A stretch of DNA of 24,000 nt from an uncultured bacterium (GTDB lineage: Bacteria; Bacteroidota; Bacteroidia; Bacteroidales; CAIWKO01). The number at the start of each line of letters is the position of its first letter. The stretch's first letter is position 1. Positions 7,988 through 8,973 of the stretch are shown here, piece after piece. The position numbers and the translations under genes are program-made. Where the stretch lies: contig CAIOJS010000266.1 in assembly GCA_903858655.1 (NCBI GenBank), positions 1-24,000 on the forward strand. The letters run 5' to 3'. The notes beneath the pieces were generated by a model. It made no database searches, was not told the DNA's origin, and saw only the letters and a list, made by a program, of their open reading frames with translations.

Positions 7988-8272
7988 ATGGTAAATCAAG
8001 AAGCAAAAGACTGCGGCTGCCAAGATGGATGCTGCGAGCCAAAGAAAAAAAACAAATTATGGATGCAGATTGTATTTGCGCTCATATTTTTAACCGCCTT
8101 ATCCATCATCACTGTGAAACTCGTGGGAAGAGGCGATGACAAAACCATCCTTGGAAAAGACTCTACCTGCACAAAAACCTCTGGCTGCTGCCCGGGATCA
8201 GGACAAAAAAGCTGTGCCAAAACGTCTGATTCCACTAATAAAACCTCTTGTTGTCCTAAAGAAAAAAAATGA
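7988..8272 (+). CDS. Cys-rich single-pass membrane mini-protein (94 aa)
   Basis: N-terminal DCGCQDGCC, then KKKNK, one TM helix (LWMQIVFALIFLTALSIITVKLV), and a Ser/Thr/Lys-rich tail with C, GCCPG, C and SCCP. The stop overlaps the next start (ATGA). I recognise no family. Confidence 0.65.
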   Translation: MVNQEAKDCGCQDGCCEPKKKNKLWMQIVFALIFLTALSIITVKLVGRGDDKTILGKDSTCTKTSGCCPGSGQKSCAKTSDSTNKTSCCPKEKK

Positions 8273-8973
8273 TGCATGAATGGATACAACAAGTCTTGAA
8301 CTCAGATCAAGCAGGGCTTAGCGTTCTCATCGCTGTTTTCTTGTTGGGAATCATCAGCGTGTTCACTTGCGCTTGCAATTTATCTATCATCGGCATCGTG
8401 GCAGCCTATTCGGGCACTCTGGGTTCCACCGGAAAAACAAAAACGATAGTAATGAACGCTTTGTTTTTTTTGCTTGGCTTGGTCATTTCCATGTCAGCGG
8501 TGGGAGGTTTGATAGGCTATGCCAGCGAATTTATCAGTGCCTCTTTTGGCAATTATTGGAAGATAGCCGCAGGCTTGGTTTCGGTATTTTTTGGACTTTA
8601 CATGATGGATTTAGTTCCATTCAAACTGCCTAGTATAACACTAAAATCGTCGAATCGCAAAAGCGGGATGCTATCATCTATACTTTTTGGGTTGACCATT
8701 GGCGGACTCACCTTGGCGAGCAGCGCCTGTTGCAACCCTGTTTTCCCTATCGTTTTAGCTATTTCGTTTGTCAAAGGAAGCTTTGTTTGGGGTATTTTAT
8801 TGATGCTTGCGTTTGCCCTCGGACATGGGATTACACTTACGGCTCTTATCATAGGTGCTGGATTAGGCTTTGGCAAAACTTCAAAAACCTTCTCAACATT
8901 CGGAAAGGTGCTTAAATATGGAGGTGGCGCTATTATGGTTGCTATCGGATTTTATTTTTTGATTACAATTTAA
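8269..8973 (+). CDS. CcdA/DsbD-like six-helix membrane protein with vicinal Cys pairs
   Basis: Topology and Gly-rich helices resemble the cytochrome c biogenesis CcdA/DsbD transmembrane domain. The helix motifs read FTCACNLS and LASSACCNPVFP instead of single Cys-Pro motifs. Confidence 0.75.
   Translation: MMHEWIQQVLNSDQAGLSVLIAVFLLGIISVFTCACNLSIIGIVAAYSGTLGSTGKTKTIVMNALFFLLGLVISMSAVGGLIGYASEFISASFGNYWKIAAGLVSVFFGLYMMDLVPFKLPSITLKSSNRKSGMLSSILFGLTIGGLTLASSACCNPVFPIVLAISFVKGSFVWGILLMLAFALGHGITLTALIIGAGLGFGKTSKTFSTFGKVLKYGGGAIMVAIGFYFLITI

Follow-up and report, generated by a model that had tools for sequence, protein, structure and literature searches.

A conserved membrane pair of a Cys-tailed mini protein and a divergent CcdA-like protein in ArsR-controlled arsenic operons and upstream of hgcAB

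Results

Gene content of the window

The window, the whole 24-kb stretch of DNA that was analysed, contains a same-strand cluster at 3949-11473 that opens with an ArsR-type gene and closes with Acr3. The two genes studied here lie within it, in an ArsR-type arsenic operon that also holds ArsC and Acr3. The features are as follows.

391..3789 (+): separate ArsE-ArsF-ArsG/ArsP organoarsenical module, assigned by NCBIfam and Pfam profile scores; ArsE-like thioredoxin, ArsR, two ArsF-like CxxC lipoproteins, ArsG and ArsP (TPFCSCS)
3949..4311 (+): ArsR/SmtB-family regulator with a C-terminal FCCSCD (Pfam HTH_5; NF033788, 67 bits against a cut-off of 55)
4342-5163 (+): secreted Cys-tailed protein, C-terminal SSCCPGGSSSGCGKK
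5170-6390 (+): MacB/FtsX-type permease with a periplasmic GCCNA motif (Pfam FtsX, MacB_PCD)
6391-7056 (+): ABC ATPase (Pfam ABC_tran)
7044..7496 (+): rhodanese-like protein with a C-terminal SCMCQ (Pfam Rhodanese, 36 bits)
7501..7917 (+): ArsC arsenate reductase, thioredoxin-type, LMW-PTP fold (Pfam LMWPc, 77.5 bits)
7988..8272 (+): mini protein of 94 aa with 10 Cys and one TM helix
8272..8973 (+): divergent CcdA/DsbD-superfamily membrane protein of 233 aa (Pfam profiles; alternative start 8269)
8980..10011 (+): HgcA, corrinoid protein with a C-terminal TM domain (NF040863, 425 bits against 275; Pfam CdhD)
10015..10314 (+): HgcB ferredoxin with a C-terminal SVCC (NF040864, 121 bits against 99)
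10403..11473 (+): Acr3 arsenite efflux permease (TIGR00832, 434 bits against 283)

In the organoarsenical module, the NCBIfam scores were 95 and 93 bits for the two ArsF-like proteins (cut-off 60) and 106 bits for MTH895/ArsE (cut-off 62). A canonical single-Cys ArsG (DsbD_2) is encoded at 2039-2755 and scored 315.5 bits on the NCBIfam ArsG model (cut-off 200), and ArsP scored 239 bits on Pfam ArsP_1. The secreted protein, permease and ATPase (4342..7056) form a trio that is syntenic in many loci, and the CC motifs of the first two (4342-6390) were kept in 15/16 and ~15/17 homologues. The rhodanese-like protein has Asp where the catalytic Cys is expected, with a loop of the form ADxxGxxS in most homologues. 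ArsC scored 134 bits on TIGR02691, under the cut-off of 174. HgcA carries the cap-helix motif NVWCAAGKG, and both HgcA and HgcB qualify as members of their families. Counts from a scan for promoters and terminators were at the level of shuffled sequence and thus uninformative, the scan not covering Bacteroidota promoters.

A bitopic mini protein with Cys clusters at both ends

The mini protein begins with DCGCQDGCC (Cys 9, 11, 15 and 16; nt 8012-8035), followed by the basic patch PKKKNK and a hydrophobic helix at about residues 24-46 (~nt 8057-8125). Its Ser/Thr/Lys-rich tail contains six Cys (C61, C67-C68, C76 and C88-C89) and ends in SCCPKEKK. The coordinates, Cys clusters, lysine-rich anchor, TM helix and stop/start overlap given in the original prediction were all reproduced. 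No Pfam or NCBIfam family matched the protein and a word-index homology search returned only the protein itself, so homologues were gathered by synteny and by tblastn in the fetched loci. In the resulting 67 sequences the N-terminal cluster was present in 65, the basic patch before the TM helix in 65, and a CC within the last 8 residues in 58. The Cys motifs of these partner proteins are CxC and CC, with CxxC in none of them, and the tail of one (L008) reaches 21 Cys. The bitopic Cys-tail proteins are a family left unannotated by current databases.

Some partners are longer: behind an N-terminal TM anchor they have a thioredoxin-like domain on the periplasmic side, in which no Cys is conserved apart from the C-terminal CC tail. 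The label "thioredoxin-like, weak" was retained for this domain; the Pfam Thioredoxin matches were all sub-threshold (E = 0.002-0.26, the long partner of L080 giving 0.002), and an ArsD-like fold was rejected, as the Pfam ArsD match was also sub-threshold (E = 1.3). Homology of the domain to the secreted protein at 4342-5163 was not established, BLAST giving only a C-terminal 32-aa match (E = 0.006).

The partner N-terminus was fused in frame to ArsC, independently, in four loci (L033, L041, L050 and L064; LMWPc 65-79 bits). In a fifth (L166), the TM helix comes after a bona fide ArsD (140 bits, MCCSTGVCG) and the sequence CGPGCACNG; an apparent in-frame TAG separates this ArsD-TM ORF from the periplasmic domain. 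Because ArsC and ArsD are fused to the N-terminus, the CxC..CC cluster of the mini protein is predicted to be cytoplasmic and tied to As(III), and the Cys tail would then be periplasmic. The fusions to these cytoplasmic proteins thus support the original expectation that thiol clusters lie on either face of the membrane. The cytoplasmic cluster is absent from some partners (L144 and L079), and in one locus (L094) a mini protein precedes HgcA without a CcdA-like gene.

A divergent CcdA-like protein that keeps the canonical Cys pair

The TGA stop of the mini gene (8270-8272) overlaps two possible starts of the next gene, ATG 8269-8271 and ATG 8272-8274. The start at 8272 is favoured because the database homologues are 233 aa long. 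The protein passed the gathering thresholds of DsbD_TM (PF02683; 33.0 bits against 27.1) and DsbD_2 (PF13386; 31.9 against 24.9), which bears out its proposed kinship to CcdA and DsbD. We found 358 CcdA-like homologues; in a set of 75 family members, 40 matched DsbD_TM and 34 matched DsbD_2 at E ≤ 1. Foldseek gave the CcdA structure 5vkv as top match and only structural neighbour; an AF2 model of the protein had moderate confidence (pLDDT 67). On the NCBIfam ArsG model (NF040495, which requires at least 200 bits), the protein scored 28 bits and distant members of the family 33-47 bits.

Four Cys are invariant or almost so across the 75 homologues. Cys33 and Cys35 (233-aa numbering) lie in the FTCACN of TM1 (nt 8368-8376), and Cys153 and Cys154 (nt 8728-8733) in the ACCNPVFP of TM4, where AC153C154NP corresponds to nt 8728-8739. 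Cys35 and Cys154 align with both active-site Cys of the solved CcdA 5vkv; they are invariant in alignment A2, and in A3, the alignment of the wider family, their conservation is 90% or more. The canonical single Cys had been described as replaced, but both are retained, with one extra Cys beside each. The extra Cys33 and Cys153 sit where CcdA has flanking prolines. The P-C-x-x-P motif is absent from both halves: TM1 has TCACNLS with no Pro, and in TM4 a Cys takes the place of the preceding Pro and the following Pro is shifted. The TM4 motif, originally read as CC-x-x-P, is C-C-N-P, that is CC-x-P, or C-x-x-P when counted from the first Cys. Since the canonical pair is kept, there is room for a redox function.

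The vicinal CC of MerT, MerC and MerF and the CPC of MerE lie inside TM helices. The resemblance to MerT that had been seen in the TM4 motif did not extend to the profiles: the CcdA-like protein had no Pfam or NCBIfam match to MerT, MerC or MerF at E ≤ 0.01, and none was found at E ≤ 1 among the 75 members. For MerE, membership was taken to mean an above-threshold match to a two-TM protein with C-P-C in TM1. Residues 21-67/73 matched MerE below threshold (Pfam PF05052, 15.6 bits against 22.8; NCBIfam NF010310, 15.8 against 80), as did 15 of the 75 family members, all of them sub-threshold, which is a lead only and not membership.

Linkage within the pair and to hgcAB

The Cys-rich partner ORF abuts the CcdA-like gene, the distance from partner stop to CcdA-like start being -4 to +8 nt in 67/68 loci. 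Both ORFs are real and form a conserved, coupled pair, as originally proposed. With the four Cys, the mini architecture and this gap all conserved, the gene features, the architecture and the coupling are far beyond chance.

HgcA starts 6 nt 3' of the CcdA-like gene in the window, and within 200 nt of it in 53 of the 63 species-level Bacteroidota loci that could be assessed; in this phylum the pair are the genes linked most tightly to hgcA. The pair also stands beside HgcA in other lineages (L080, L112, L144, L149 and L161). The co-occurrence with hgcAB that the original prediction called for was thus found in this direction. It did not hold in the other: 5/10 and 4-5/49 HgcA loci carried the pair, and most, close relatives included, were without it. 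Two of these (L090 and L092) have HgcAs that are 63-68% identical and the same ars context. The pair is therefore dispensable for HgcAB as such, and the idea of a general Hg(II) route to HgcAB was not sustained.

A comparison of N-termini showed that the HgcA of the window lacks an N-terminal CC/CU extension. CC/CU motifs of HgcA and HgcB have been described (Haft and Gwadz 2022, bioRxiv 10.1101/2022.07.06.499078). The N-terminal arm was absent from pair-linked HgcAs and carried by many pair-less ones; a complementarity between pair and arm was considered, but L080 combines the two, and loci such as L090 and L092 have neither, which weakens the idea.

Arsenic contexts of the pair

Most loci have an ArsR-type gene ahead of the pair, and synteny with ars, hgcAB and arsM genes extended over more than 80 loci in several lineages. 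At some loci the pair lies directly upstream of ArsM, of ArsP-ArsA-Acr3 or of Acr3 alone, so a dedication to HgcAB or to mercury could not be upheld. Among 12 contigs looked up for distant members, the pair preceded ArsM in 6, HgcA in 3 and ArsP-ArsA-Acr3 in 1. The ArsM proteins next to distant members scored 329 (L073), 367 (L075), 366 (L081) and 380 bits (L082) on NF008823 (cut-off 263). An orthologous cassette, with CcdA-like proteins 66-68% identical, stands ahead of ArsM in three loci (L075, L081 and L163) and ahead of HgcAB in another (L144). In five loci (L044, L052, L053, L068 and L166) the pair was found in ars operons without any methylase. The best explanation is that the two proteins make up a conserved membrane module that is translated together and belongs to arsenic operons under ArsR control. 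We found no published description of it.

Discussion

A possible thiolate relay

Intramembrane Cys move thiophilic species in Acr3, in ArsP (CxC), in MerT, MerC and MerF (CC) and in MerE (CPC). Our leading, still tentative, interpretation is that the pair may act as a relay that carries As(III), and possibly Hg species as well, through the inner membrane by thiolate ligand exchange, with outward as the probable direction. The partner's cytoplasmic cluster would capture the As(III) that ArsC or ArsD makes or holds in the cytoplasm, and would hand it on to the Cys within the membrane part of the CcdA-like protein, which could work by alternating access like CcdA. The As(III) would be released to the metallothionein-like periplasmic tail (terminal CCPK), and from there could move on to the MacB-type ABC system with its CC motif and to further periplasmic proteins with CC tails. 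The same chemistry would suit Hg(II), MeHg and methylarsenite, and this may be why the pair is placed directly before HgcAB or ArsM. Binding of metal(loid), its translocation and a link to the substrate or product of the methylase are what we infer from these features.

This relay is suggested by the conservation and coupling of the two genes, their position in ars operons, the ArsC and ArsD fusions, the CxC and CC motifs, and the exchange of ArsM, HgcA or ArsP-ArsA-Acr3 behind the cassette. It is also suggested by the nearest NCBIfam model being ArsG, which figures among the organoarsenical efflux transporters in a review (PMC9144182, citing Chen, Zhang and Rosen 2019). As a relay, the second DsbD-like system would not be redundant, since a redox-type ArsE-ArsF-ArsG set is already in the window. 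The probable outward direction is based on the fusion partners and on operon logic. Counting against a relay are the partners without a cytoplasmic cluster, the mini protein of L094 with no CcdA-like gene, and the many HgcA loci without the pair.

Comparison with known systems

The pair resembles CcdA/DsbD-beta in the size of its CcdA-like protein (~230 aa), in a predicted multi-helix bundle with aligned TM1 and TM4 Cys, and in a membrane-anchored periplasmic partner that is thioredoxin-like in its long forms. It differs in having TCACN and ACCNP, with Cys for Pro before each active Cys and a conserved Asn after it, and in a conserved N-terminal helix (M-x-E-W-I-x-Q) beyond the CcdA alignment. 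The partner has CxC/CC clusters on both membrane sides and CxxC nowhere, and the genetic context is ars, hgcAB or arsM instead of cytochrome c maturation. With ArsE-ArsF-ArsG the pair shares the fold, the type of operon, ArsG as the family's best NCBIfam match, and thiol-bearing partners that in that system are cytoplasmic (ArsE) and periplasmic (ArsF). However, the CcdA-like protein is far under the ArsG cut-off, ArsG has single Cys in SPC and FCP, and the pair merges both partner roles in one bitopic non-CxxC protein and adjoins HgcAB or ArsM.

The flexible Cys cluster of ArsD (CC..C) binds As(III) and hands it over to the membrane exporter ArsAB. The L166 protein, in which an ArsD domain is joined to the Cys cluster and TM anchor of the partner, recalls this arrangement, but the mini protein has neither an ArsD domain nor a thioredoxin fold, and the proposed acceptor is the CcdA-like protein and not the ArsA ATPase.

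In the SAO locus of Clostridioides difficile, most members have CC, CU or CSC motifs; SaoC is secreted and CC-terminal, SaoE is an ArsP-like exporter, an ABC system is present, and a role in handling a heavy metal or organometal has been proposed for the locus (Haft and Gwadz 2022, 10.1101/2022.07.06.499078). The cluster described here is likewise a multi-protein locus rich in CC-type motifs, with a CC-ending secreted protein and an ABC system. Its protein families are different, only ArsP resembling SaoE (125 bits against a cut-off of 325), a DsbD-like component is absent from SAO, and no selenocysteine was seen in the window.

Alternative explanations

The main alternative is a dedicated reductant conduit, in which the CcdA-like protein would draw electrons from cytoplasmic thiols and pass them to the Cys tail of its partner in the periplasm, and perhaps also to further periplasmic proteins with CC tails; kept in the reduced state, these would sequester As(III) or Hg(II) away from the cytoplasm. 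Membership in the Pfam families and the sole structural neighbour 5vkv agree with it, and the long partners are built like classical CcdA substrates, a TM anchor with a thioredoxin-like domain. The periplasmic proteins of the island with conserved CC motifs would also need reduction. No Cys other than Cys35 and Cys154 is universally conserved, which makes ordinary electron transfer between thiols and disulfides possible and counts against a relay. However, CxC and CC make poor disulfide couples, the partner is without any CxxC, and the thioredoxin-like domain brings no conserved Cys of its own. A conduit leaves unexplained why the partner is fused to ArsD, an As(III) chaperone without a redox role, and why there are extra intramembrane Cys and a conserved Asn beside each Cys, and the island already has ArsE-ArsF-ArsG with proper CxxC partners. 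We consider a reductant conduit somewhat unlikely.

An importer of the Mer type, which would take periplasmic Hg(II) or As(III) inward over the intramembrane Cys to HgcB/HgcA for methylation, is closest to the original prediction and appears quite unlikely. The Mer relay (MerP to MerT/MerC/MerF/MerE to the N-terminal domain of MerA) is likewise a chain of Cys pairs, periplasmic, intramembrane and cytoplasmic in turn, feeding a cytoplasmic enzyme, and the weak, recurrent MerE matches span TM1-TM2 of the CcdA-like protein. An importer would fit HgcA lying immediately 3' in most Bacteroidota loci and recurring in other lineages, the missing CC/CU arm on these HgcAs, periplasmic CC tails akin to MerP-type scavengers, and the service of the same cassette to ArsM, which also needs a thiolate-bound substrate. 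Against this, the fold of the pair differs from that of the Mer transporters, membership in MerT, MerC and MerF is absent, regulation is of the ArsR and not the MerR type, and the context is arsenic. The pair is missing from most HgcA loci (L090 and L092 among them) and present in methylase-free ars operons, and L080 combines it with an N-terminal CC arm on HgcA. Import is also not indicated by the operons themselves: the ArsC and ArsD fusions, together with Acr3 in the same operon, suggest cytoplasmic As(III) as the input, Acr3 would oppose As(III) import, and the direction of the pair is probably opposite to that of the Mer relay.

A housekeeping CcdA that serves cytochrome c maturation or reduces periplasmic disulfides in general, and lies beside hgcAB by chance, would agree with the Pfam family names and with homologues annotated "cytochrome c biogenesis protein CcdA". 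It is extremely improbable given the widespread ars/hgcAB/arsM synteny, the divergent Cys motifs and the dedicated Cys-rich partner. Profile searches of the whole 24-kb window also found none of the ccs, res or ccm genes, and hence no sign there of the cytochrome c link that the original prediction had named as its counter-case.

Implications for HgcAB and ArsM

A further reading is that the pair might be dedicated to metal(loid) methylases as their thiolate hand-over device, forming a membrane complex with HgcA/HgcB in Bacteroidota and serving ArsM elsewhere, and that it delivers the thiophilic substrate or removes the methylated product. It is suggested by the same cassette preceding ArsM or HgcAB, always under ArsR-type control, and we regard it as unlikely. 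If it were true, HgcAB in these lineages would be the functional equivalent of ArsM in arsenic detoxification, and the methylation of mercury would arise as a side reaction in the handling of arsenic.

HgcAB and ArsM are connected by one shared accessory cassette. The pair is a conserved and genetically tractable candidate that bears on two questions of mercury microbiology: by which route Hg(II) and methylmercury pass through the membrane on their way to and from HgcAB, and what purpose hgcAB serves, the latter arising from recurrent ArsR control and ars neighbours. Bacteroidota are major hgcA expressers in thawing permafrost (PMC7438021). A relay would extend the CcdA/DsbD fold from electron transfer towards the trafficking of thiophilic metal(loid)s. 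In the databases, homologues of the pair have either no annotation or the label "cytochrome c biogenesis protein".

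Gene organization of the pair

The mini protein gene and the CcdA-like gene lie within a run of same-strand genes (3949-11473) with gaps of 0-88 nt.

Genes of the same-strand run at 3949-11473, in order
3949-11473, first part: ArsR, secreted protein, MacB/FtsX-type permease, ABC ATPase, rhodanese-like protein
3949-11473, second part: ArsC, mini protein, CcdA-like protein, HgcA, HgcB, Acr3
7988-8272, + strand: mini protein, 94 aa, 10 Cys
8272-8973, + strand: CcdA-like protein, 233 aa

The N-terminus of the mini protein reads DCGCQDGCC and then PKKKNK, after which comes its single hydrophobic helix, LWMQIVFALIFLTALSIITVKLV. 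The Ser/Thr/Lys-rich tail carries the Cys elements C, GCCPG, C and SCCPKEKK. The stop codon (TGA, 8270-8272) overlaps two candidate ATGs for the CcdA-like gene, at 8269 and 8272, and the latter is favored because the database homologues are 233 aa long. Both ORFs and their Cys motifs, as first described, were confirmed. HgcA starts 6 nt after the CcdA-like stop (NF040863, 425 bits versus a cut-off of 275) and is directly followed by HgcB (121 bits versus 99) and then by Acr3 (434 bits versus 283).

Within the secreted protein/permease/ATPase trio at 4342-7056, the secreted protein has the C-terminal end SSCCPGGSSSGCGKK, and the MacB/FtsX-type permease has a GCCNA motif at residue 240 in its periplasmic domain. 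The CC motif was kept in 15 of 16 secreted-protein homologues and in about 15 of 17 permease homologues. In many loci this trio accompanies the ars-hgcAB cluster, and it also does so in L092, where the pair is missing.

The upstream region (391-3789) encodes an ArsE-like thioredoxin, ArsR, two ArsF-like CxxC lipoproteins, an ArsG of the canonical single-Cys type (315 bits versus a cut-off of 200) and ArsP. With its cytoplasmic thioredoxin, DsbD-like membrane protein and CxxC proteins in the periplasm, this complete module resembles a classical electron relay, even though ArsG has been listed as an efflux transporter (PMC9144182). No cytochrome c maturation genes were found in the whole 24-kb window.

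Conservation and relationship to CcdA

A word-indexed protein search gave 358 homologues of the CcdA-like protein; among the 120 matches listed, almost all were about 233 aa long and the named organisms were Bacteroidota without exception. The same type of search with the mini protein recovered only the query itself. Despite this, synteny in 72 species-representative genomes, all Bacteroidota, showed that the mini protein is conserved: 67 of 68 loci had a Cys-rich ORF of 75-163 aa whose end lay -4 to +8 nt from the start of the CcdA-like gene. The two ORFs form a real pair with a recurrent mini architecture. An N-terminal CxC..C(C) cluster and a basic patch immediately before the single TM helix were each present in 65 of the 67 mini sequences, and 58 had CC in the last eight residues, typically as SSCCPK. 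The intervening tail varied in length and Cys number, reaching 21 Cys in the 163-aa homologue of locus L008 (7510-8001), where repeated (E/D)KSSCC..K units are metallothionein-like in look. Across 75 CcdA-like homologues, Cys33, Cys35 and Cys154 were invariant and Cys153 was at least 90% conserved.

The CcdA-like protein, with FTCACN in TM1 and ACCNPVFP in TM4, scored above both Pfam DsbD models (33 bits versus 27.1 and 31.9 versus 24.9). Its sole solved relative by sequence was CcdA 5vkv (E = 0.01), in which the two active Cys align with Cys35 and Cys154, whereas prolines stand in place of Cys33 and Cys153. The canonical Cys pair, thought in the original prediction to have been replaced, is therefore retained. 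The AF2 model was of moderate confidence (pLDDT 67, pTM 0.65), and its sole meaningful Foldseek match was again 5vkv (prob 1.0, TM-score 0.37). The protein is therefore assigned to the CcdA/DsbD superfamily as a member of a divergent subfamily, and not to the Mer proteins. The nearest NCBIfam model was ArsG, at 28 bits versus a cut-off of 200. The proposed likeness to MerT was not upheld: the MerT, MerC and MerF profiles matched none of the 75 members at E ≤ 1, and MerE matched 15 of 75, all below threshold.

Linkage to hgcAB

Sixty-three genome loci had enough sequence after the CcdA-like gene for the downstream genes to be counted.

Genes following the CcdA-like gene in 63 Bacteroidota loci
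HgcA start within 200 nt: 53
HgcA within 2 kb: 2
Acr3, then HgcAB: 1
Acr3 only: 4
Neither HgcA nor Acr3: 3

The suggested co-occurrence with hgcAB was thus found. For the converse, 80 metagenomic HgcA loci were considered and assessed if their upstream sequence reached 1 kb or more, together with a few shorter loci in which the CcdA-like gene itself was visible. Where HgcA was at least 60% identical to that of the window, the gene was upstream in 5 of 10 loci; where HgcA was more distant, it was upstream in 4-5 of 49. The association from HgcA to the pair is much weaker than that from the pair to HgcA, and since most assessed HgcA loci, including close relatives, had no CcdA-like gene, the pair is an accessory that hgcAB operons often carry but can do without. 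Among the close relatives, L092 has the order secreted CC protein, FtsX, ABC, ArsR, ArsC, HgcAB, Acr3, and the pair is likewise absent from L090. In L094 (4607-4948), a 114-aa mini homologue (DCGCEGGDCCQPKK, TM, SSCCSKK) immediately precedes HgcA without a CcdA-like gene, which shows that the mini protein can be kept beside HgcA on its own.

HgcA of the window's clade has no N-terminal Cys arm (window region 8980-9030). Many metagenomic HgcAs from loci without the pair (within the set L083-L162) are extended by a segment that contains CC, or show an in-frame TGA after a Cys, which is the CU motif of Haft 2022 (10.1101/2022.07.06.499078). Complementarity between pair and Cys arm is imperfect, with both present in L080 and neither in L090 and L092. 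A His-rich cation-diffusion-facilitator-like transporter, assigned by eye (HHHSHDHGHDHDH N-terminus), lies between the pair and HgcAB in L112 (3919-4911), where the partner has 15 Cys and repeated CCAP units.

Arsenic contexts and partner fusions

When 1.84 billion representative proteins were searched with a profile, 1400 relatives were found at E ≤ 1e-3, 183 of them reaching 1e-10. A multi-Cys clade, with SCCN, S-x-CN or C-x-(x)-C in TM1 and often C-x-x-CCNP in TM4, extends down to about 85 bits, below which ordinary CcdA SPC and PC motifs occur. Only the equivalents of Cys35 and Cys154 are conserved family-wide. Twelve distant members, chosen by the length of their contigs and regardless of neighbors, were examined for context.

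Contexts of twelve distant CcdA-like members
Pair, then ArsM: 6 (non-independent; five belong to the same lineage and have a CARDB lipoprotein between pair and ArsM)
Pair, then directly HgcA or HgcAB: 3
Classical ars operon (L166: ArsC, ArsC, ArsD, partner, CcdA-like, ArsP, ArsA, Acr3): 1
MarR gene upstream, no obvious partner enzyme: 2

ArsM was confirmed in four of the six (329-380 bits versus a cut-off of 263), as was the identity of HgcA in L080, and an ArsR-type regulator preceded the pair in most of these contexts. The three-gene cassette in L144 (partner, CcdA-like protein, CARDB lipoprotein ending SSCCPGG), after which HgcAB comes, is orthologous to those preceding ArsM in L075, L081 and L163; the CcdA-like proteins are 66-68% identical, the partners 42-45% and the lipoproteins 43-45%. 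The contexts of this wider family suggest a link to arsenic.

Outside Bacteroidota the partner has 180-255 aa. A CC/CxC cluster is usually present at the N-terminus; behind it come a single TM helix and then about 110 aa forming a domain of weak thioredoxin likeness (best E = 0.002) without conserved Cys, and the C-terminal Cys tail ends in GSCCPK, SGCCPQEK or ESACCPGQ. The mini protein of Bacteroidota has this design minus the globular domain. In four loci (L033, L041, L050, L064) the mini N-terminus carries an in-frame fusion to an LMW-PTP-type ArsC. In L166 (1706-2683), one ORF holds a genuine ArsD domain (140 bits; MCCSTGVCG), then CGPGCACNG, a basic segment and a TM helix; past a single TAG, the same frame goes on to encode the thioredoxin-like domain and the Cys tail, which have no signal peptide of their own. 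This arrangement may reflect a split gene, an error in the sequence or recoding. ArsC and ArsD are cytoplasmic proteins that produce and carry As(III), respectively. The fusions therefore tie the partner's cytoplasmic end to As(III) and, with the basic patch, assign the N-terminal cluster to the cytoplasmic side and the tail to the periplasmic side, in support of the predicted thiol clusters on both faces of the membrane.

Predicted function

As the predicted function of the pair we favor a relay that works by thiolate ligand exchange across the inner membrane, and argue for soft metal(loid) ligation rather than a simple disulfide relay. The main rival is a classical reductant conduit with the CcdA-like protein as electron carrier, which is consistent with the retained canonical Cys pair. 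However, the motifs are CxC and CC throughout, CxxC is absent, and a proper ArsE/F/G redox-type set is already present in the same island. The ligand-exchange relay is further favored by the metallothionein-like tail expansion, the fusions to ArsD and ArsC, and the fixed place beside enzymes or pumps acting on thiolate-bound As or Hg.

In such a relay, the partner's cytoplasmic Cys cluster would be the first station, handing over to the CcdA-like protein's intramembrane Cys, and these in turn to the periplasmic partner tail; the conserved CC of the secreted protein and the FtsX-permease periplasmic domain are possible next stations. Outward movement of As(III) is the predicted direction that we favor because of the fusion partners and Acr3 in the same operon. 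Hg(II) import by the pair, the model of the original prediction, is possible but less supported. Hg(II), MeHg or methylarsenite would fit the chemistry of the relay just as well, and this could account for the position next to both HgcAB and ArsM. The idea of a thiol relay beside hgcAB stands, but its import direction does not, nor, given the ArsM and ars-operon contexts, does its Hg-specificity.

The association of hgcAB with arsR, arsC, acr3 and arsM has already been published (PMC7438021; bioRxiv 10.1101/2022.10.17.512643; PMC11984097), as have the CC/CU motifs of HgcA/HgcB and the SAO locus (10.1101/2022.07.06.499078). In the literature searched, hgcA was not found together with CcdA or "cytochrome c biogenesis", and occurred with DsbD only in a selenoproteome review. 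Source labels of the CcdA-like homologues were "cytochrome c biogenesis protein CcdA", "TauE/SafE" or hypothetical. The partner/CcdA-like module appears undescribed; what is known already is the CcdA/DsbD fold, with ArsG as precedent.

Other features of the loci

The rhodanese-like protein (7044-7496) has Asp at the catalytic Cys position (ADSVGLRS; most homologues are of the AD type), carries SCMCQ as a C-terminal motif and is probably not a sulfurtransferase. The two ArsR-family regulators of the window (3949-4311 and 704-1003) differ in their Cys sets: one has a C-terminal FCCSCD and LCC near the N-terminus, the other NACCTS ahead of the HTH. Both sets resemble the alternative As(III)-binding S3 sites described for ArsR proteins. 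Downstream (12440-14620 and 19295-22376) are a DUF1573 protein, a MauE/DoxX membrane protein, an O-methyltransferase and a B12-binding radical SAM enzyme; in L075, a MauE-redoxin fusion is encoded close to the pair. In ars operons with the pair and ArsM, a 277-280 aa protein with an MtrA-like corrinoid-subunit domain (128 bits) and the small FeS domain of CODH/ACS gamma immediately precedes Acr3 (L075 2966-3799; L081 2971-3813; L082 2947-3780; L163 1823-2656), and may be another arsenic-linked corrinoid protein.
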